Shown here: in pieces, positions 1,966 to 41,067 of the stretch
Numbering within the stretch: the stretch's first letter is position 1
Layout of the letters: each line of letters starts with the position of its first letter
Assembly (NCBI GenBank): GCA_024654525.1
Contig: JANLHI010000032.1
Location: 128,172 to 192,171 of the forward strand
Direction: 5' to 3'
DNA from: Patescibacteria group bacterium
GTDB lineage: Bacteria > Patescibacteriota > Minisyncoccia > UBA6257 > 2-01-FULL-56-20
Length of the DNA stretch: 64,000 bases
Made by a program: the position numbers and the translations under genes
Notes under the pieces: model-generated
Told to the model about the DNA's origin: nothing
Databases searched by the model: none
The model's input: only the letters and a program-made list of their open reading frames with translations

Positions 1966-2106
1966 ATTAAAGCTATAGTAAGACGGATTGATTTTTGGAG
2001 CAAGTAAGATATGATAAAAATCACAATGCAATTAATAAAAAACCTTTTCGTTTTTATAAATAAAAAATCAAGAATATTAGGCGGGTGGGGTCTGCGAAGG
2101 TTTAGA

Positions 2107-2883
2107 ATGGTGAACGCAATACACAATTACGTTGCGCGAAAAGCTTTCGGAGACAAGGCGGAGGTGAATGGATATTCTCTTTTTATTGACCCCGCCGAAG
2201 GGTTTGCGGTGTCGTCTGTGTGGGAAAAAGATACGACGGATGTTATAAAGAGCAAATTCCATCGGGGGGGGGTCTTCGTAGATGTTGGATCCGACATTGG
2301 TTATTACACGTGTCTGGCGGCGCAACTGGGTGCCGGACATATATATGCCATTGAGCCGAATCCTCACACTAGAATGTTGTTGGAAAAGAACATTGCGGTA
2401 AATGGTTTCAAAAATATTACTATAGTTGGCAAGGCGGCAAGCGACAAGTCGGGAGAAGAAAAGTTTTATACGCATGGGGCTCATAGTACGCTTGGCTACA
2501 ATTACAATAAAAACACATCAGAGCGGACAACGATAACTGTTGAAACGATGCCGTTGGATGTGGTCGTCGGTGATGGCACGGTGAATTTTATAAAGATGGA
2601 TATTGAGGGGTCGGAGCCAAAAGCACTTCGCGGCATGCGGAAATTGCTTGAAAGAAACAAACAGGTGCAGATTATCACCGAGTTTGCCCCGCAATTGATG
2701 GCATTGGCAGGAGAAGACCCTTTTGTATTTCTCAAGAGTTTACATAATCTCGGGTTTATCATTTACGATGTGGATAATATTAATAATCCTATGAGCCCGG
2801 AAGAACTAATGGCCGCATATCGGGAAAAATATAAAAAACTCGGAGATGCTCGTGCGATAACTAATCTGTATTGTGCGAGATGA
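2107..2883 (+). CDS. FkbM family methyltransferase
   Basis: VFVDVGSDIGYYTCLAA...YAIEPNP...NFIKMDIEGSEPKAL is the FkbM/Methyltransf_21 signature. Start chosen at ATG 2107 (MVNAIH), which has an AAGG Shine-Dalgarno 7 nt upstream and leaves an AT-rich divergent promoter region. The track ORF starts further upstream at 2011. Confidence 0.6.
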   Translation: MVNAIHNYVARKAFGDKAEVNGYSLFIDPAEGFAVSSVWEKDTTDVIKSKFHRGGVFVDVGSDIGYYTCLAAQLGAGHIYAIEPNPHTRMLLEKNIAVNGFKNITIVGKAASDKSGEEKFYTHGAHSTLGYNYNKNTSERTTITVETMPLDVVVGDGTVNFIKMDIEGSEPKALRGMRKLLERNKQVQIITEFAPQLMALAGEDPFVFLKSLHNLGFIIYDVDNINNPMSPEELMAAYREKYKKLGDARAITNLYCAR

Positions 2884-2973: not shown

Positions 2974-4224
2974 ATGCGTATTGCAATTGTTACTTACAAC
3001 TTGAAGTGGGTGGGAGGGGGTCAGCGACTTACTTATGAATTGGCGCAGGAAATAGTAAAGCGCGGGCACTCGCTCGTGATTTATGTTCCCGATGCCGAAT
3101 ACAGCGAGATTGCATATCCGGATTTACAAAAGGGACTTTCTATTCGAACAGTTCCCGTTCCGAAGGGATATCTGTGGTCGCCGCAGAGCAAGTTGCTGGC
3201 GATGCGCCTTGTGTATAAAGTCATTAAAGAGCGATGGTTGAATTCTACCGGAAAACGAATGGCACAAGCACTGCTCGCGGATGGCGATAATTTTGATATT
3301 ATAAATGTCCATGATTTTGCGTATAAAGTTGCCTATTACTACAAGAAGCGGGGAGGAAAGGCAAAAGTGGTGGGGCAGGGAAATGACCCGGCATATCATT
3401 ATCTTCCGCATCCCGAGAGTTATATCTATGACCGCTTGAGCTATTACTTTAATAAATTGAAGGATTATCCTGAACGGAAATTTTTTAGGGCGCTTGATGC
3501 GACGGCGGTGCTCGATGTGTATGGGAAAGAGTGGTACGAGACGCGCGGCGTGCCGCGCGCCGAGGTGGTGCATCACGGCACGGATTTCAACGCGTTCTAT
3601 GCGCCGGTAAAAGACGTCTCGGAGAAATTCAAACAGAAGAAGGTACAGCTTATGGGATTGGGAATCCTCAATCCTTATCGTGGATATGCCTCGCTTATCG
3701 AAACCGTGCGTATATTGCGCGAGTGGGGATACGATGCAACTGCAAAAATCGTCTGTCGCGATTATTGGAAGCGTCCGCTGTGGCGGGAGAATTTGCTTTC
3801 GAGAATACGGGAAGGGCATCTTGAACAATATGTAAGCATTAATTTTGATGGGGTTTCTGACGCGGAATTAAAGAAGTTGTACGCGGAAAGTGATATTTTT
3901 TCATACCTCCTCTACCTTCCCGCACCGCGGAATGGATTCGGATTCTCTTCAAGTATTCCGGAAGCAGCCGCTTCGGGTATTCCCGCGATGACGTGGACTA
4001 CGACGACTTCACTTGAAGCGTTCAAGGACGGGGAAAGTATTATCGCCGCCGAACCGCTTCATGCTGAACAGCTTGCCGCAAAAGTAAAAGAGTTAGTGGA
4101 TAATCCAGAAAAGTATCGCGCGATGGCGTTTGCCGCGCAAAAACTGGTGCAAGAGGAGTTAAACTGGCAGAAATTTACGGAAGGCATTGTGCGTTTGTTT
4201 TCGGAAACGCAAAACACGCGGTGA
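2974..4224 (+). CDS. glycosyltransferase family 4 (GT-B fold, group 1)
   Basis: 416 aa. N-terminal MRIAIVTYNLKWVGGGQRL and a C-terminal E-x7-E-like region (SSSIPEAAASGIPAM) are typical of GT4 retaining transferases. Confidence 0.65.
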   Translation: MRIAIVTYNLKWVGGGQRLTYELAQEIVKRGHSLVIYVPDAEYSEIAYPDLQKGLSIRTVPVPKGYLWSPQSKLLAMRLVYKVIKERWLNSTGKRMAQALLADGDNFDIINVHDFAYKVAYYYKKRGGKAKVVGQGNDPAYHYLPHPESYIYDRLSYYFNKLKDYPERKFFRALDATAVLDVYGKEWYETRGVPRAEVVHHGTDFNAFYAPVKDVSEKFKQKKVQLMGLGILNPYRGYASLIETVRILREWGYDATAKIVCRDYWKRPLWRENLLSRIREGHLEQYVSINFDGVSDAELKKLYAESDIFSYLLYLPAPRNGFGFSSSIPEAAASGIPAMTWTTTTSLEAFKDGESIIAAEPLHAEQLAAKVKELVDNPEKYRAMAFAAQKLVQEELNWQKFTEGIVRLFSETQNTR

Positions 4225-6834: not shown

Positions 6835-8214
6835 TTATAATAAGGGTTTTCCGGGAAGATTTTTATGTTGCATTCCCAACGCTTTTAAAATGGTTGGTGC
6901 GATACGGAGTGCATCGACTGTTTCGATTTTTCCTTTTTCCTGCAGTAACGGCGATTTCATCACAAATACTCCTTCGGGAGAGTGTCCCGCATCATCAATA
7001 CCCACTGTGGTTTCTTGTGAATAAAGGCCGAAGTTTCCGATGTCGTTATTTACTCCATATCGCAAATTGTCGAAATATACAATAATGTCGGGAGCTTTCC
7101 CGTCTTTTTTCCGATATATGGTTTTGGTATCAAACACGCGGTTTTGAAGTTTTTCTCCACGTTCTCCCTTGATCGCGTTAAGCTTTTTTATAAGATATGA
7201 CTTCAATTTTACCTTTTCTTTTCCGAAGAGATATATTCTTCCCTGATATCCACCCGATGCAATTGCGCAAGTTTTTTTCCAATCAATTTCTTCGTGGCGG
7301 AGGCGTCGGGGAATTTCAAGCGGTGGGGATGTATTTTTTAAAATAAGAAGTTTTTCGCGACGGAGCCAATCATTTAAATTGATACGACATTCCATTCTAT
7401 CCATACCATGATCAGAAACAACGATGATGGTGGTGTGCTTGTCTATTTTTGATGAGGCGAGAAGCTTCCCTAATTCGCGATCTGTGTATTGATAATAATC
7501 ACGAATAACGTTTTTATATGGAGAGTTTTTCAGGTGGCGAGGATGATGTGGATCCATGTGGCGCCAGAACATATGATGAAGGCGATCGGTGCCAATGATA
7601 ACCATATTGAAGAGGTCCCAATCATAGTGTTTCATGCAGTATTGCGCAACGCGGAAATGTTGTGCGGACATGGTGTATGTTTTCTTGATGAGCATATCAA
7701 GGTCGAGTTTCTTATAGCCGGTGAATCCCGCAACGTCAAAAAGATATTCTTTTCCGCGCAGTAGTTTTGTGATTTTTGATTTCAGCGTGCGTGGATGAAC
7801 GCTGTGTTCGTCGAATGATGGAGTGAGAAAATCGGAAATCATGGCGCCATGAATAGGGCGCACGGGATAGGTGAGGGGAATATTAAGTGCAACCACAGTT
7901 TTCTTTTTTTTGTCGAGCATGTCCCAGAGCATGGGTACGCGGATGTTCTCCGAGGTGATAAGCGTATTCATTGATGCGGGACCGGGCGCCTCGGTGTAAC
8001 TATGCACGCCGGTTTCACTCGGGTCGCGTCCGGAATTGATGCTCGTCCACGCGACGATGGAAGTTGGAGGAATGGTGGTGCGCATGCGCGCATACATTCC
8101 CTCTTGCATGAGTCGGGCGATATTCGGTACATCTTTCTTATAGCGTCCGAAGACGAGCTCCGGCACCATGCCGTCCACGCCAAAAACGAACACTTTTTGC
8201 TTTGGTTTTTTCAT
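6835..8214 (-). CDS. alkaline phosphatase superfamily protein (nucleotide pyrophosphatase/phosphodiesterase-like)
   Basis: KVFVFGVDGMVPEL near the N-terminus (metal-ligand Asp, nucleophile-region pattern of NPP/type I phosphodiesterase family) and VVSDHGM (the conserved DHG metal-binding motif). Start moved to ATG 8214 (MKKPKQ), which leaves a 10-bp gap to the sat stop. Confidence 0.5.
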   Translation of the reverse strand: MKKPKQKVFVFGVDGMVPELVFGRYKKDVPNIARLMQEGMYARMRTTIPPTSIVAWTSINSGRDPSETGVHSYTEAPGPASMNTLITSENIRVPMLWDMLDKKKKTVVALNIPLTYPVRPIHGAMISDFLTPSFDEHSVHPRTLKSKITKLLRGKEYLFDVAGFTGYKKLDLDMLIKKTYTMSAQHFRVAQYCMKHYDWDLFNMVIIGTDRLHHMFWRHMDPHHPRHLKNSPYKNVIRDYYQYTDRELGKLLASSKIDKHTTIIVVSDHGMDRMECRINLNDWLRREKLLILKNTSPPLEIPRRLRHEEIDWKKTCAIASGGYQGRIYLFGKEKVKLKSYLIKKLNAIKGERGEKLQNRVFDTKTIYRKKDGKAPDIIVYFDNLRYGVNNDIGNFGLYSQETTVGIDDAGHSPEGVFVMKSPLLQEKGKIETVDALRIAPTILKALGMQHKNLPGKPLL

Positions 8215-24622: not shown

Positions 24623-25442
24623 TTAGTCCGCGAGGAGGAAATCCCGGGTTGCCTCGTGCGGCCAGGGGAGGGTGAACGGCGTCCTGTGGTCGAGCGCCAT
24701 CCATTCCGACCCGCCCCATTGGTTCAGAATGGGGATGTAGCGGGCAAACCACTCTCCCGGATCATTAAAGGCGACGAGGAAGCAATAATCCGGATTGTTG
24801 AATTTCTGGTTGAATTTCAGGATAAGGCGGAGCGCATCCTCCGCGAGGCGTTCGGGGAAGGCGTCGCGCTTGGTATAGTCAGGCCTTGGATAAATAAGTG
24901 CTTCGCCTGCGCGTACTCCTGTGAGTACGGTTACGAATGCTTCGCTTTCCCAAAGATCAATCATGTCGTTTCCAATTCTGAGTTCTTTTGGCTCGGTGCC
25001 GGGTTGGAGTACATGCCAGTGATGATGCGGGAAGTTTTGCCCCGCGCCGTACCCGACATGGGTAAAAATCCACGTGGGGAACGGGTCGGTTCTTCCACAT
25101 ATCATTTCATCTCGGGCGAACCGAAGTGCGGTAGAAAGCAGCTTTCCCCCCCCCTAAACTCCACAGCGTTATCGCATCCCAACATTCATCGGGAGTGATG
25201 AGACGATGGAATGAGAAAGGGCTGTTGTTGTTCTGAAATCCTTTCCATCTTCGCGAGAGAGAATGCTCGTCAATCTGTGGTTGTGTACAAAGGGGGCAAT
25301 CCTCCCTTTTATGGGGATATTGTGGGCAGTTCATAGGAACTTGCCACGGTCGAACTGTTTTTACTGCCGTCCGTGTCCCGCCGCACAGAGTGAGATGTCC
25401 GCCAATCGTGGTTTGTACCACGCCCTCAAGAGGGATTTTCAT
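24623..25442 (-). pseudogene. galactose-1-phosphate uridylyltransferase-like HIT-family gene, frameshifted at a C9/G9 homopolymer
   Basis: The upstream ORF (25442..25107) carries GalT N-terminal motifs (KTVRPWQ, CPLC). The downstream ORF (25105..24623) carries the HIT/GalT active-site GQNFPHHHWHVLQ (HxHxQ). The two are in different frames, separated by stop - 1 nt - ATG. Extending the downstream frame back shows both frames encode ...GGGK... across the 25146-25154 C9 run, which locates the shift there. Confidence 0.5.
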
Positions 25443-34684: not shown

Positions 34685-35605
34685 ATGTACGATCTTCTTA
34701 TAATTGGTGGCGGACCCGGCGGTGTTGCCGCAGGAATATACGCTGCAAGAAAAAAAATAAAGTCAGTGCTTATTACCGACTCGTTCGGTGGGCAATCGCT
34801 TGTTTCCGCGGATATCCAAAACTGGATAGGAACTAAATCGATATCGGGTTTTGATTTGGCAAAAATGTTTGAGGATCATCTTCGCGCGCAAGAAGATATC
34901 GATGTTATTGATGGTGATTTTATCACTGAAATAAAAGATAGTGGTGATGTGTTTACTGTGTCTACAAAAAAGGGAAACACGTTCGAGGGGCGGCGTCTTC
35001 TCATTACTTCTGGAAGTAGGAGAAGGAAGCTTGGCATTCCCGGGGAGAAAGAGTTTGATGGGAAGGGAGTCGTGTATTGTTCAACATGCGATGCGCCGGT
35101 GTTTAAAGGGAAGACGGTTGCGGTTATTGGTGGTGGTAATTCCGGTCTTGAGGCGACATTGGATTTGTTGCCGTACGCACAAAAAATTTATCTCTTGGGA
35201 AGGAGAGATCATCTAAAAGGGGATCCAGTAACGCTTGAACGTGTGCAAAAGAGCGAGAAAGTAACGATTCTCACCATGGTGGAGTCGCAGGAGATTCTCG
35301 GAGATTTGTTTGTAAAAGGGTTGAGATACATGGATAAGAGAACAAACGAAACAAAAGAGATTGCGCTTGAGGGTGTATTTGTTGAAGTCGGTGCCGTGCC
35401 GAATTCCGAGTTTGTAAAAGGACTGGTTGAAGTGAATGCATTCGGTGAAGTGGTAGTGGATCATAAAACACAACGCACGTCTCACCCGCGAATTTGGGCG
35501 GCGGGGGATGTGTCGGATGTACTCTATAAGCAAAATAATATTTCTGCGGGAGATGCGGTGAAAGCAGTACTGAATATTTATGAAGAATTACAGAAGCAGG
35601 TTTGA
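34685..35605 (+). CDS. trxB: thioredoxin-disulfide reductase
   Basis: YDLLIIGGGPGGVAAGIYAAR FAD GxGxxG motif, the CSTCD redox-active disulfide (CxxC) and the VAVIGGGNSGLEA NADPH site. Start at ATG 34685. Confidence 0.8.
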   Translation: MYDLLIIGGGPGGVAAGIYAARKKIKSVLITDSFGGQSLVSADIQNWIGTKSISGFDLAKMFEDHLRAQEDIDVIDGDFITEIKDSGDVFTVSTKKGNTFEGRRLLITSGSRRRKLGIPGEKEFDGKGVVYCSTCDAPVFKGKTVAVIGGGNSGLEATLDLLPYAQKIYLLGRRDHLKGDPVTLERVQKSEKVTILTMVESQEILGDLFVKGLRYMDKRTNETKEIALEGVFVEVGAVPNSEFVKGLVEVNAFGEVVVDHKTQRTSHPRIWAAGDVSDVLYKQNNISAGDAVKAVLNIYEELQKQV

Positions 35606-35832
35606 CTTTCCACTTAGGCGGGATAGAGCAGAAATATGGTTCTTATTACCATTGAAGAAAAAAATAGAACAGGCGGTGGAGCGCGCGGTATAACGCGCCT
35701 TGCGCGAAGTGCTGATTGACCCCGATAAGGGGCTCAAGGTGCGCTCCTTGTTCGGGAAAAACATCCGAACGTTGCGGAGAAATTGCGCGGCAAGGTCCGC
35801 GATTTTGACGAGGTCGTGCGCTCGCTCTAATT

Positions 35833-36252
35833 ATGGCATGTATGGTGGCTCTGGACTGGAAGTTTGCGTTTACTTCCGCAGGAGAGCGGGACTTGCGGGC
35901 GCTCGATGTACCCATACGAAAAAGAGTTGTGGAGAAACTGGAATGGTTTCGCGATAATTTTTCTTTGGTTATACTTGAGTCCCTTGGCAGTGAGTGGCGC
36001 GGCTATTTCAAGTTACGGGTAGGGGATTGACGGGTGGTGTACGACGTTGATTATGAGCTTTACGCCGTCACGGTTCATCGGATTCAACTTCGTGATAAGG
36101 CGTATAAAAAACAAAGATGGGAGCTCGCACGATTTGCGTTCTTCTTTGCAAAATGGTATAATTTCGCCACGTTCTTTGAAAGTTTACATCGCGGTGAAAA
36201 CCAAGTAGCAGCGAGCTTTGAAAGAACGCCCGCGTCGAGTCCACATTTTTGA
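35833..36252 (+). pseudogene. RelE/ParE-family toxin gene disrupted by in-frame TGA (W/Y codon to stop), with degenerate upstream antitoxin remnants
   Basis: ORF 35833..36030 ends ...EWRGYFKLRVGD, then TGA, then the same frame continues RVVYDVDYELYAVTVHRIQLRDKAY. This is the conserved RelE/ParE C-terminal core (rlRvGdYRviY...hRkdiY) with a stop at the conserved aromatic position. The upstream antitoxin is only readable as pieces in three frames (35636..35830). Confidence 0.55.
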
Positions 36253-36293
36253 ATGGCGGATAGGACGTACATCGAAAGAGAGGAGCTGTCAGT

Positions 36294-37004
36294 ATGACAC
36301 TCTTGTTAAATAAAGTTGCGGATGAACAGAAACGGAAACCCACAGGTCAGGAAAAAGACCAGTTCCTAAAACAGGCTGGCGATTTCCAACGGCGGTTTAT
36401 GGATGGTTCACTTGTGCCCAATCGTGCGCTTGAGACTTGGCAACAAGTTTCGGAGGGATGGGTACTCGGGGAATCAGGGGTACCCGAACCAAAACCCGCC
36501 GAACTTTTCCTCGACAAACCGATCCAGCATCCCCACCTCTCATTCGTCAGCGAGTTCGAGGTGGAAGTCCCCGCGGACTTCGCGCTCGACAGTGTCCCGC
36601 GCACGGCATACTGCCCGAACGGATGGAATGCAAACATCACTGATATCAATTTCCCTCGTATGTCGCTCGTCAAAGGCAAACGATATATGGCGGAAATCTA
36701 TCAGTTGCGGTGCAATAAGAGCTCGGAGTCCATCGTGAAAATTGCGGATGAGCGAAAGCGAGTCCTGCCAGGAGCCTTGGGCGGCGCAGTCCTTACGAGT
36801 CGCTATGGAGAAAAACTCCCGAAAGATTTTTGGGTCGTGTGTTTGGATAAAATCAAAAACCTTTGGCGCGATGGGCACGGTCTCCATGTTCCGATCTTCA
36901 ACTGGAACGACTTCGGCTGGGACTTCAACTTGGACATCTGGAACGGCGACTGGTTTCAGGGCTTCTACATCGTGTTTTTCCGCGAGTTTGTTTCAAATCC
37001 TTAG
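36294..37004 (+). CDS. DGR target (variable) protein; C-terminal ~40 aa encoded by VR
   Basis: 236 aa with no signal peptide or TM. The C-terminal WRDGHGLHVPIFNWNDFGWDFNLDIWNGDWFQGFYIVFFREF is encoded by the VR. The variable codons correspond to TR AAC/AAT/GAT/TAC codons. Confidence 0.6.
   Translation: MTLLLNKVADEQKRKPTGQEKDQFLKQAGDFQRRFMDGSLVPNRALETWQQVSEGWVLGESGVPEPKPAELFLDKPIQHPHLSFVSEFEVEVPADFALDSVPRTAYCPNGWNANITDINFPRMSLVKGKRYMAEIYQLRCNKSSESIVKIADERKRVLPGALGGAVLTSRYGEKLPKDFWVVCLDKIKNLWRDGHGLHVPIFNWNDFGWDFNLDIWNGDWFQGFYIVFFREFVSNP
36860..36983 (+). repeat. DGR variable repeat (VR)
   Basis: Aligns without gaps to 37346-37469. The 13 mismatches are VR c,g,t,t,g,g,t,t,t,t (plus c,t,t at the 5' edge), all against TR a. 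Homology ends at ...tttttccgc. Confidence 0.75.
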
Positions 37005-37174
37005 GTTTTGGCTCTCCGAACCTTTGGATATTAATCCTTAGACCCTTGAGTGCTTTGCGCTTGGGGGTCTTTGCGTTTTGGTATACTGTTTTCGGATACT
37101 AGGCGAATATGCGCGCGGTTACGGCTTCGCGCTGCCGAATTCTCGATATGCGCATGGAGAGTTGCGCCGGGTAC

Positions 37175-37196
37175 GCCTGCCTACCGGCAGGCAGGC
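37175..37196 (+). repeat. GC-rich hairpin motif copy (gcctgcc-taccggca-ggcaggc) between DGR VR and TR
   Basis: Shares the cctgcc...ggcaggcagg core with 39361-39378. Confidence 0.45.
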
Positions 37197-37345
37197 TTTG
37201 TGCGAGAGGCATGTGCAATTCGTAAAAAAATTGAAACACTCGGTGCGCCTCGCTAGGTGATTAAAGCAAGAAGTTTAATATCACGAATTCGATACAACTC
37301 CGAGATATGCATTCAAGGAGTGGTGGCGCAGGCGGTGCGGCGCAC

Positions 37346-37469
37346 ACAATGGCGCGATGGGAACGATCTCCATGTTCCGAACTTCAACTGGAACGACTAC
37401 GGCTGGAACTTCAACTTGAACATCTGGAACGGCGACTGGAATCAGGGCAACTACATCGTGTTTTTCCGC
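37346..37469 (+). repeat. DGR template repeat (TR)
   Basis: Non-coding copy of the VR. The core (37351-37469) carries 30 adenines, 10 of which correspond to substituted positions in the VR (3 more at the 5' edge). No non-A position differs. AAC-rich when read in the VR frame (aac x7). Confidence 0.75.
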
Positions 37470-37476
37470 TACTGTT

Positions 37477-37830
37477 TCATTTCTCCTCCCGTACGGAGGA
37501 GTTTTGCTTTATAAGTTGATTATGCCACCCGCCGAGCATCCGTCCCGCTTCCGCAAGCGGTGCGGATAATGCAATATATTTCTTTTCGTCGAGGGCATGG
37601 ATTTCCCACGCGAGCAAAAGGAGGCACTTTCCCGTATCAAGCGCCGTGATTGCATGCTTTACTTCTGGTAGCTTTTCCGTCTTTGGGAGAAAGCAGGCGG
37701 TTACCGTATGCTCGATTGTGGCGATGAGAAGCGCGTCAATCCGCGCGGCAAGCGTGTAACGCGAAGCTTTCGGTATGTGCGGTAGATACTCATGCCAAAG
37801 CTTGTATGCGGAAGTAATTTTGTGAAGCAC
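37477..37830 (-). CDS. Avd-like accessory variability determinant (four-helix-bundle protein), opposite strand
   Basis: 117 aa, basic, predicted all-helical. ...RYTLAARIDALLIATIEHTVTAC...KHAITALDTGKCLLLLAWEIHALDEKKYIALSAPLAEAGRMLGGWHNQL resembles the four-helix-bundle (PF05635/TIGR02436) family to which DGR Avd proteins belong. Sits between TR and RT. Confidence 0.5.
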   Translation of the reverse strand: MLHKITSAYKLWHEYLPHIPKASRYTLAARIDALLIATIEHTVTACFLPKTEKLPEVKHAITALDTGKCLLLLAWEIHALDEKKYIALSAPLAEAGRMLGGWHNQLIKQNSSVREEK

Positions 37831-37868
37831 GATTGGACTCCGTGGGGGGGGGGCTTATAAAGAATCAT

Positions 37869-38915
37869 ATGTTTGAACAGATTATTGCAGTCGAAAACTT
37901 GCTCGCGGCGTGGAAAGAATTTTTGCGCGGCAAACGGACGAAACCCGATATGCAGGAATTCTCCTTGATGCTAATGGACAATATCCTAGCTCTTCACGAG
38001 AAACTACGCAACGGCACCTATCGCCACGGGGAGTACAAACATTTCCGCATTACCGACCCTAAGCCACGTGACATTCACAAAGCCACCGTCCGGGACCGGT
38101 TGCTCCACCACGCTATCCATAGGGTGCTCTATCCCTTTTTCGACCGCACATTCATCGCCGACTCGTTCTCATGCAGGAATGGAAAAGGGACGCATCGCGC
38201 GATGAACCGTTTCCGCATGTTTGCCTATCAAGCGAGCAGGAATCACACTCGCACGTGCTGGGTGCTGAAGTGCGATATCCGCAAATTCTTCGCTTCAGTT
38301 GACCACCATATGCTCATGGAAATTCTCCGTTCCCGGATAACAGATAAAAAGACTCTTTGGTTACTCGGGGACATTGTGGGAAGTTTTTCAAACACAAAAA
38401 TCCCTCGGTTCGCGAACTCGCCACTCCCTTCCCTCTTTCGTTCGCAAGCTTCGGTGGGCTCAGTACGAACGGGAGAACCAGGAGGAATAGGGCTTCCGCT
38501 CGGAAACCTCACGTCCCAGCTTCTCGTGAATGTTTACATGAATGAGTTTGACCAGTTTGTGAAACATCGCTTGCGAGTAAAGTATTACGTCCGTTATGCG
38601 GACGATTTTATAATTATGTCCCAAAATAAGATGTGGCTCGAAACTATCTTGCCAGAAATGGAATCTTTTCTTTGGGGTTGGCTGAAACTTCGCCTGCATC
38701 CCGGCAAGGTGTCCGTTTCCACGATCGCCTCGGGCGTGGATTTCCTCGGCTGGGTGCATTTCCCAAGCCATCGCGTGCTACGAACGGCGACGAAAAAGAG
38801 AATGATGAAAAGAATCTTTGCGCATCCCACGAGCGAAACCTTCGAATCTTATAAAAGCCTTTTATCTCATGGCAACGCATTCGGATTGGAGAAAAAATTT
38901 ATATCAAGCTCTTGA
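37869..38915 (+). CDS. DGR-type reverse transcriptase
   Basis: RT domains are present: RITDPKPRDIHKATVRDRLLHHAI (1-2), SFSCRNGKGTHRA (3), GLPLGNLTSQLLVNVYMNEFD (4, with the DGR-specific [I/L]GxxxSQ motif replacing the group II QGxxxSP), YVRYADDFII (5, YxDD) and LRLHPGKVSV...VDFLGW (6-7). The track ORF starts at TTG 37833. ATG 37869 is preferred; a G10 run lies between them. Confidence 0.8.
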   Translation: MFEQIIAVENLLAAWKEFLRGKRTKPDMQEFSLMLMDNILALHEKLRNGTYRHGEYKHFRITDPKPRDIHKATVRDRLLHHAIHRVLYPFFDRTFIADSFSCRNGKGTHRAMNRFRMFAYQASRNHTRTCWVLKCDIRKFFASVDHHMLMEILRSRITDKKTLWLLGDIVGSFSNTKIPRFANSPLPSLFRSQASVGSVRTGEPGGIGLPLGNLTSQLLVNVYMNEFDQFVKHRLRVKYYVRYADDFIIMSQNKMWLETILPEMESFLWGWLKLRLHPGKVSVSTIASGVDFLGWVHFPSHRVLRTATKKRMMKRIFAHPTSETFESYKSLLSHGNAFGLEKKFISSS

Positions 38916-38939
38916 CAGCCCTTCGCGCGGGGCTATAAT
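38912..38939 (+). promoter_or_regulatory. near-consensus sigma70-type promoter for groES-groEL
   Basis: TTGACA (38912-38917) - 16 nt - TATAAT (38934-38939). Confidence 0.55.
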
Positions 38940-38946
38940 ACTTCCA

Positions 38947-38973
38947 TTAGCACTCTTTAGTCGGGAGTGCCAG
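38947..38973 (+). promoter_or_regulatory. CIRCE-like HrcA operator
   Basis: ttagcactc-tttagtcgg-gagtgccag against the consensus TTAGCACTC-N9-GAGTGCTAA. The left arm is perfect and the right arm has 2 mismatches. Lies between the promoter and the groES start. Confidence 0.6.
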
Positions 38974-38992
38974 ATTAACTTAATATAAGTTT

Positions 38993-39283
38993 ATGCAATT
39001 TAAACCATTGTCTCACCACGTATTCCTTGAGCCTCTTGAGGAAGAAAAGGTGACGAAGTCTGGTATTGTGCTTCCGGAGACGGCTGAGAAAGAAAAGCCG
39101 ATGAGGGGGAAGGTGCTTGCGACGGGTCCGGGTAAGTTGAACGAAAAAGGTGAGCGTGTGCCAATGTCGGTCAAGGTCGGCGACACTGTCCTCTTTAAAA
39201 AATATGGTCCTGACGAGATAGAGATAGAAGGAAAAAAATATTTAGTAGGGGATGAGGATGATATCTTGGCAATTATAGAATAA
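38993..39283 (+). CDS. groES: co-chaperonin GroES
   Basis: 96 aa. ...RGKVLATGPGK...VKVGDTVLFKKYG...IEIEGKKYLV is the canonical Hsp10 sequence. Confidence 0.9.
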   Translation: MQFKPLSHHVFLEPLEEEKVTKSGIVLPETAEKEKPMRGKVLATGPGKLNEKGERVPMSVKVGDTVLFKKYGPDEIEIEGKKYLVGDEDDILAIIE

Positions 39284-39321
39284 CTGAAGTAATCGTTAAT
39301 AACGCGAATTGAGGCAAATAA

Positions 39322-41067
<1,746 letters not shown>

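Follow-up and report, generated by a model that had tools for sequence, protein, structure and literature searches.

Does the 64,000-nucleotide stretch of a Patescibacteria chromosome analyzed here (contig JANLHI010000032.1; "the window" denotes this whole stretch) carry a complete diversity-generating retroelement (DGR), and how would the RNA that templates its mutagenesis be organized? We identified a complete chromosomal DGR in the window, in which a target gene ending in a variable repeat (VR) is followed by a template repeat (TR), an avd gene on the reverse strand and a reverse transcriptase (RT) gene. This order, target-VR / TR / (avd, reverse strand) / RT, is that of Architecture B3, TR-(avd)-RT, which predominates among DGRs of the Candidate Phyla Radiation (CPR) (Wu et al. 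2018, PMC5758913). Comparison with related loci further points to a structured RNA leader 5' of the TR, whose parts look like a circular permutation of those in the Bordetella phage DGR RNA, and to a simple-sequence repeat between avd and RT that suggests slipped-strand control. Taken as a whole, a complete CPR-clade DGR working through the mechanism proposed below is the explanation in which we have high confidence. Its genes and repeats are as follows (positions in the window; aa, amino acids).

36294-37004, plus strand: target (variable-protein) gene, 236 aa, with an N-terminal helical region and a predicted C-type-lectin-fold domain at residues ~80-231
36864-36983, plus strand: solid core of the VR, at the 3' end of the target open reading frame (ORF), residues ~190-230; a start at 36860 is possible
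37350-37469, plus strand: solid core of the TR, with 30 adenines (33 from 37346), nine AAC codons and one AAT codon, and 21 variable codons
37477-37830, minus strand: avd, 117 aa, isoelectric point 8.9, GTG start; converges on the TR and diverges from the RT gene
37869-38915, plus strand: DGR reverse transcriptase, 348 aa, with LGNLTSQ (motif 4) and YADD (motif 5)
38391-38489, plus strand: loop that separates RT motifs 3 and 4; it exceeds that of most relatives by ~27 aa

The VR and TR form a direct repeat of 120-124 bp that aligns without gaps at an offset of 486 nt. Between 36860-36983 and 37346-37469 there are 13 mismatches, the TR has adenine at 13 of 13, and none of the 91 non-adenine positions differs. 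The probability that all 13 mismatches would fall by chance on the 33 adenines among 124 positions is P = 4e-9. A first-pass annotation, made from the sequence alone, had described a gapless repeat pair differing only at TR adenines, with the VR forming the 3' end of the 36294-37004 gene, and realignment bears out both statements. The 124-bp extent it gave is recovered with its coordinates and offset, except that the first four positions are ragged. Positions 36860-36863 contain three of the 13 mismatches and a single match, and at the same 5' edge the homology in a sister locus (L001) needs an indel to align; we therefore set the solid repeat at 120 bp (36864-36983 / 37350-37469). All ten mismatches in this core are at TR adenines (P = 2.6e-7).

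The TR is intergenic, with the target gene on one side and avd on the other, and the ORFs that overlap it are only mechanical and are not conserved. Of its in-frame adenines, 31 of 32 fall in the first or second position of a codon, a design typical of DGRs, and substituting them cannot create a stop codon. The 21 variable codons correspond to ~3e18 possible proteins. We scanned both strands of the 64-kb window for a second VR-like copy templated by this TR and found none.

Relatives of the RT occur at no fewer than 565 loci in GTDB species genomes, and the best 80 of these (56-67% identity) were compared. Nearly all of the 80 are from Patescibacteria/CPR or unclassified bacterial metagenome-assembled genomes (MAGs), and one short contig had been binned with an archaeon. 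The avd gene is directly upstream of the RT gene on the opposite strand in 76 of the 80 loci. A search for adenine-biased repeats recovered the arrangement VR(+), TR(+) 385-730 nt downstream, avd(-) and RT(+) in 71 of them, each with 5-30 VR/TR differences of which 80-100% are at TR adenines. The window element is thus an ordinary member of the known CPR B3 class, sharing host group, gene order and avd orientation with it, and nothing essential differs. The small target (~200-250 aa in the class) that has no signal peptide, transmembrane segment or Pfam domain and carries its VR at the extreme C-terminus is likewise typical. In the scheme of Roux et al. 2021 (PMC8144416), DGR clade 2 is the one named with CPR/DPANN DGRs.

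The closest relative (L001/L007) is from a Candidatus Liptonbacteria MAG and shares 88% nucleotide identity from the VR to the start of the RT gene, non-coding positions included. Its VR/TR pair (L001) has 23 differences, all at adenines. Two sister target variants (P0002 and P0154) differ at 17 residues, 16 of which are in the VR at codons whose TR counterparts contain adenine, and we take this as evidence that elements of this type diversify in nature.

The RT ORF has motif 4 in the context LPLGNLTSQ. Its best solved relative is the Bordetella phage DGR RT (8ub7, E = 2.4e-41), compared with 6e-18 for the best group II intron RT, and it matches PHROG 1423 with E = 1.8e-109. The assignment to the DGR class is made from these motifs and the best solved and profile matches, and it agrees with the DGR-type RT carrying LGNLTSQ and YADD that had been proposed at first. 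Between motifs 3 and 4, the RTs of this clade have a hot spot for insertions: at the same position, sequence-unrelated insertions of 10-58 aa are present in other loci (L035, L051, L061, L077 and L027), and by this comparison the loop is tolerant of insertions.

The ORF between TR and RT matches PHROG 3206 ("Avd protein of DGR") with E = 6.5e-12. Its location and its Avd-like character had been recognized in the first-pass annotation, which left unsaid that the gene is on the minus strand. In the sister locus L001 the avd frame (7195-7551, minus strand) is intact and 81% identical to that in the window; it has ATT in place of the GTG start, with no ATG, GTG or TTG there. All of the defining parts are present and intact, so what had been called an apparently complete DGR can be regarded as one, and 71 of the 80 relatives have the same cassette.

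The interval between VR and TR (257-612 nt) is strongly conserved across the 71 loci. The elements identified in this interval and just past the TR are listed below; helices are given as 5' strand / 3' strand.

37040-37070, plus strand: terminator-like 14-bp hairpin and T run after the target stop codon, its position kept in the 71-locus spacer alignment
37079-37087, plus strand: extended -10-like box TGGTATACT, consensus TGnTAnnnT, candidate promoter of the TR RNA
37094-37345, plus strand: structured TR RNA leader, ~250 nt, start approximate (RNAalifold)
37111-37119 / 37124-37132, plus strand: leader helix H1
37153-37172 / 37195-37213, plus strand: leader helix H2
37175-37196, no strand assigned: perfect 22-nt palindrome GCCTGCCTACCGGCAGGCAGGC, inserted in the H2 apical loop and missing from most relatives
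37232-37243, plus strand: leader "primer strand" TGAAACA..CGG, pairs with the TR 3' end and flank and directly abuts H3
37243-37254 / 37334-37345, plus strand: leader helix H3, a 12-bp long-range helix
37258-37261 / 37280-37283, plus strand: leader helix H4
37284-37296, plus strand: conserved 13-nt single strand CGAATTCGATACA between H4 and H5
37297-37305 / 37313-37321, plus strand: leader helix H5
37466-37479, plus strand: TR 3' end CCG (37466-37468) and flank TGTTTCA (37473-37479), complementary to 37232-37243
37483-37510, plus strand: hairpin CTCCTCC-cgtac-GGAGGAG followed by TTTTGCTTT, overlapping the end of the avd coding sequence on the opposite strand

An alignment of 61 leaders folded with RNAalifold yields a structure of 45 base pairs, 40 of which show compensatory double changes. 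Pairing is possible in 95.4% of cells, compared with 38-53% in controls with the 3' partners slid by 1-3 columns, and the covariation score is 0.814 compared with 0.13-0.21 in the slid controls. The observed values were not reached by any of 500 shuffles. The TGnTAnnnT box is found in 52 of 71 spacers and in 23 of 71 shuffled spacers, and ~45 of the boxes are located at a conserved distance of 226-272 nt upstream of the TR; we infer that it is the promoter of the TR RNA. Several RNA motifs associated with RTs have been described previously (RT-1 to RT-19; Weinberg et al. 2017, PMC5737381). A search of positions 35500-39500 against Rfam 15 at E <= 1 returned no match, including to group II RNAs, retron RNAs or the RT-associated motifs.

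The apical parts of H1 and H2 (37117-37126 and 37169-37198; A4 columns 143-153 and 201-231) contain the same motif, G-G/A-Y-Y-A-C-G-G-Y-T-T, in nearly all loci, and this duplication suggests two equivalent protein-binding sites. The 22-nt palindrome (GCCTGCCTRCCGGYAGGCAGGC) is found in the H2 loop in the window and in L053 and within H1 in L007 (~3228-3250), and a shorter version is present in the groES-groEL interval (39362-39377). The palindrome resembles a small mobile element of the repetitive extragenic palindrome or miniature inverted-repeat transposable element type that is tolerated in hairpin tips.

The 3' side of the template would be contacted by a second portion of the leader. The leader consensus AAATGAAGA-TAC-TTG is complementary to the consensus CAA-CTC-TCTTCATTT at the TR end and flank, and the two sides covary between loci. 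In an alignment-free comparison, cognate leader:flank duplexes have a mean energy of -6.9 kcal/mol, compared with -4.1 kcal/mol for non-cognate pairs (z = -12.5, 0 of 20000 permutations), and the median rank of a leader's own flank is 2 of 61. At the 3' end of the repeats, where initiation of mutagenic homing elements (IMH/IMH*) would be expected in a DGR, VR and TR of the window part after ..TTTTTCCGC, and TGTTTCA is again common to both after a 3-nt offset; a 14-bp hairpin is located 56 nt past the VR, on the side where a GC-rich inverted repeat would be expected. On the other side of the template, the 3' strand of H3 ends at 37345, 1-5 nt short of the TR. Because H3 ends just before the TR and the leader:flank duplex forms at its other end, the template would be bracketed by two helices whose leader strands are contiguous. 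This RNA model would set the start of the template at 37346, despite the conservative TR start at 37350. A hairpin followed by a T tract is located 10-15 nt past the end of the TR in 63 of 71 loci, with unrelated stem sequences, and may represent an intrinsic-terminator-like RNA end, a counterpart of the Avd-binding stem-loop, or both.

The order of the elements in the CPR RNA is a primer-type strand, a stop-type strand (the 5' side of H3), H4, the conserved single strand, H5, the 3' side of H3, the TR, the primer partner, and a stem-loop. The RNA in the Bordetella phage complex consists of an avd segment, the TR, an Avd-binding stem-loop, the A56 priming strand, the stop strand, a stem-loop, the thumb ring and a bRT-binding stem-loop (bioRxiv 10.1101/2023.10.23.563531). 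The CPR RNA looks like a circular permutation of this arrangement. While the Bordetella phage BPP-1 DGR has the order mtd-avd-TR-brt, avd in the window is inverted and located between TR and RT, and the accessory RNA, which is 3' of the TR in BPP-1, is 5' of it here. Additional differences from BPP-1 are the two extra 5' hairpins (H1 and H2) with RRYYACGGYTT-like loops, the apparent end of the RNA at a terminator right past the TR, the G tract between avd and RT, the chromosomal rather than phage-borne location, and a target that is a small soluble protein instead of a tail fiber.

The best-surviving alternative is that the leader has no part in cDNA synthesis, being either a small RNA in its own right or, for the target gene, a regulatory 3' untranslated region or a terminator-promoter region, and that the functional Sp-like elements, as in the Bordetella phage, are instead 3' of the TR within antisense avd. 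Handa et al. (bioRxiv 10.1101/2023.10.23.563531) reported putative Avd-binding stem-loops just downstream of the TR in many DGRs, CPR included, and a hairpin is indeed present right after the TR here; moreover, the role of the leader in cDNA synthesis is argued from sequence comparison. However, in 63 of 71 loci a T tract comes after that hairpin, and most transcripts should therefore terminate at this place; the sequence further downstream is constrained by avd coding. The 3' strand of H3 stops within 1-5 nt of the TR, the adjoining leader strand covaries with the TR 3' flank, and circular permutation of the Bordetella phage RNA gives the order of elements seen here. Handa et al. examined 40 nt upstream of the TR and would therefore have missed the leader. 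We consider this alternative unlikely, and prefer the view that the leader is part of the template RNA.

Under the preferred model the TR RNA would start at the extended -10 promoter near 37079-37087 and run through the ~250-nt leader and the TR to the hairpin and U tract at 37483-37510. H3 would close the 5' side of the TR, and the leader:flank duplex (37232-37243 with 37466-37479) would close its 3' side. We infer priming near G37242, a stop at H3 and an RNA whose end is the terminator-like hairpin. The RT-Avd complex would start cDNA synthesis beside the duplex, would misincorporate opposite adenines, and would stop at H3; by analogy with the Bordetella phage element, the primer is probably an internal 2'-OH near G37242. 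Replacement of the VR by this cDNA would recode up to 21 codons, and the residues concerned would be on the face with which the target, a small 236-aa protein that is cytoplasmic or unanchored, binds its ligand. Expression of RT, Avd or both may depend on how long the G10 tract separating their genes is.

This tract is a homopolymer in the intergenic region from which avd and RT diverge.

37844-37853, no strand assigned: G10 homopolymer in the 38-nt divergent avd-RT intergenic region

The avd-RT intergenic region has a median length of 63.5 nt across the loci (38 nt in the window). A G tract is present in 73 of 78 loci, ranges in length from 6 to 13 with a mode of 10, and in most loci is 11-19 nt away from the start of avd. 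Of the five loci that have no G tract, three contain (GT)n, (CT)n or (GA)n in its place, and since dinucleotide repeats stand in for the G tract, the conserved feature is a simple-sequence repeat and not a sequence. Only eight other G or C runs of >= 7 occur in 628 kb of the same loci, which makes the tract ~700-fold enriched per nucleotide over the flanks. A poly-G sequencing artefact was considered and rejected, as the tracts lie within contigs rather than at their ends and recur in synteny in 73 MAGs that many different studies produced. In locus L042 the assembly breaks (a run of N) beside a very long poly-C near the tract, consistent with a tract that is hard to assemble or hypervariable there.

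Reading the window by eye, we find a -35 element TTGGAC (37833-37838), a 17-nt spacer holding the tract, a -10 element TATAAA (37856-37861) and an ATG 7 nt later, a geometry that implies a leaderless RT mRNA. In the window a mechanical ORF from TTG 37833 runs across the G tract and might represent an N-terminal extension of the RT; no stop interrupts the RT frame across the tract in 55 of 73 loci, but only 29 have an in-frame start upstream. A perfect palindrome CTTATAAG at 37854-37861, right past the G tract, provides a -10-like TATAAG on both strands and might serve both divergent genes; it is absent from the sister locus L007.

Contingency promoters with comparable repeats include the poly-G/C spacers of Neisseria porA and opc, the (TA)n between the divergent promoters of Haemophilus hifA and hifB, and the poly-C of Bordetella fim. 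Like these, the CPR tract is a long homopolymer in a very short divergent region, varies in length (6-13) and can be swapped with dinucleotide repeats, and in some loci it is part of a spacer, 16-18 nt in total, that separates a -35-like box from a -10-like one. Unlike them, it would control a mutagenesis machine rather than a surface antigen. Slipped-strand control of RT and/or avd expression appears to be the most economical reading, and in the literature we searched, no paper connects DGRs to homopolymer tracts or to phase variation. The window contains further G/C homopolymers in coding regions, G9 at 2264-2272 (ORF 2011-2883, plus strand, which looks methyltransferase-like by eye) and C9 at 25146-25154 (ORF 25107-25442, minus strand). 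These may mark further slippage-prone (phase-variable) genes.

Several observations weigh against the proposal of a complete and working element with this mechanism. What is proposed for the ends of the transcript, for the site of priming and for an effect of the G tract comes from sequence comparison only. The -35/G-tract/-10/leaderless-ATG model fits only ~10-18 of 73 loci by crude patterns. Although the Avd ORF matches NCBIfam DivGenRetAVD (E = 1e-14, 54.7 bits) and Pfam bAvd (E = 3.3e-9, 37.7 bits), it does not reach their cutoffs of 80 and 40. The distance between RT motifs 3 and 4 is 67 aa (clade mode 40, range 35-98). Substitutions affect only 10 of the 30 adenines in the core, a count close to the lower limit of the 5-30 differences found across the clade, and the protein cluster of the window target has one member, a single sequence for this strain.

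Diversification by the window element in its own strain is accordingly unproven, and it may be asked whether the element is a fossil, once active and now silenced, for example through the 27-aa insertion in the RT loop or the current length of the G tract. The ten substitutions, compared with 15-25 in most relatives, the unusually long RT loop, the single database sequence and the decay by an in-frame stop of a neighboring ParE-like gene are all compatible with this idea. However, the three ORFs and all of the RNA helices are intact in the window, as is the leader:flank duplex, and the fact that VR and TR have not drifted at any non-adenine position in 120 bp speaks for recent homing. The loop insertion is not conclusive as a mark of RT inactivation, given that the length of the loop varies from 35 to 98 aa across the clade. 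A silenced element is, in our judgment, unlikely, and we favor an element that has been homing recently. The idea that the RT belongs to a group II intron, retron or defense system and that an ordinary duplication differs at adenines by chance finds support in the best-scoring NCBIfam model, group_II_RT_mat (TIGR04416), and in weaker Drt and retron matches, but it is effectively refuted and has a negligible probability, as these scores are far under their cutoffs (144 bits against 300 for the group II model, 50 against 235 for the retron model NF038233, and the Drt models likewise), no other solved structure comes near bRT as a relative, the SQ signature of motif 4 is found together with Avd, Rfam contains no group II intron or retron msr-msd RNA matching the locus at E <= 1, and the adenine restriction (P = 4e-9) recurs in 71 independent loci.

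What kind of protein the element diversifies had been left open in the first-pass annotation. The predicted structure supplies a conventional answer: in a confident AlphaFold model, the VR domain of the target is a C-type-lectin fold, and the VR encodes the last beta-strands of the predicted domain (residues ~190-230). The solved DGR C-type-lectin variable proteins named as closest are Treponema TvpA (2y3c) and Mtd (1yu0); animal C-type-lectin-like domains, FGE/SUMF2 and EgtB are also listed under the fold. Thermus TaqVP and nanoarchaeal AvpA are further DGR variable proteins with this fold. The result is in keeping with the expectation that unannotated VR domains of the CPR are divergent C-type-lectin folds (Roux et al. 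2021, PMC8144416).

The target gave nothing meaningful against Pfam, NCBIfam, PHROGs or the sequences of the PDB, either as a single sequence or as a 121-sequence profile, and a Foldseek search against viral structures returned no match with E < 0.5. Five homologues were found among 5.8 billion proteins, one of them identical and from a Patescibacteria MAG. The target profile recovered 292 more distant relatives among 1.8 billion cluster representatives, all of 160-270 aa and none with a meaningful Pfam match. The subfamily is characterized by the motif LW.D..G.HVP.F.W..GW.F.L..W.GDW..GFYIVFFRE and is rare, with 13 of the 71 related loci having targets that match its profile.

Two target homologues (P0004 and P0005) have no TR or RT within the fetched flanks; P0004 adjoins sortase/SecDF genes and P0005 is in a terminase-bearing, phage-like contig. 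The genes without TR and RT (L006 1963-2538, on a Logan SRR8426594 contig, and L004 6001-6762) are found in a phage-like contig with a large terminase and in a CPR chromosome between a sortase-adjacent gene and secDF, and both retain the VR-like W/F/L scaffold. They may be remote or orphan DGR targets, or a sign that the family moves on phages.

The cassette is surrounded by chromosomal housekeeping genes, with no phage genes adjacent. Genes for a PAP2-family protein, a DsbA-like thioredoxin, a glutaredoxin and a thioredoxin-reductase-like oxidoreductase are upstream, and groES, groEL and thyX are downstream. Immediately upstream of the target is a ParE/RelE-like toxin gene (35833-36120) with an in-frame TGA (36031-36033) at a conserved GD[W/Y]R position. 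With W in place of the TGA, the toxin reaches the Pfam ParE_toxin cutoff (23.4 bits, cutoff 23). An antitoxin-like frame upstream of the toxin (35637-35830), possibly an antitoxin remnant, also looks broken, and the pair appears to be a decayed toxin-antitoxin module beside the DGR target.

We found no description of the structured leader, the leader:flank duplex or the G tract in the portions of the CPR DGR papers that were compared, a comparison that did not take in Paul et al. 2017 (Nat Microbiol 2:17045). With the same scope, the permuted RNA and gating by a repeat are in neither Rfam 15 nor the open-access DGR papers. The permuted RNA and the contingency tract are hypotheses for the whole class, strongly supported at the level of sequence and apparently undescribed. 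That the whole CPR B3 class, which is probably the most numerous in nature, may use a circularly permuted DGR RNA and place RT and avd under a slippage-prone repeat is a proposition on which we are evenly balanced.

At the least, the cassette adds one CPR DGR and one predicted C-type-lectin variable protein, and supports the view of Roux et al. 2021. If the proposed organization is correct, the priming strand, the stop strand, a thumb-ring-like single strand and an RT-binding-like hairpin would all be contained in a ~250-nt leader 5' of the TR, and the hypermutation machine would be gated by a contingency repeat. This provides a concrete RNA model for DGRs with inverted avd genes, in which the limits of the template (37346-37465), the helix proposed as the stop and a candidate for the branch nucleotide are specified. 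An RNA of ~420 nt and two small proteins could be reconstituted in vitro or engineered. The conserved slippage tract suggests that CPR cells may switch or tune targeted hypermutation stochastically.

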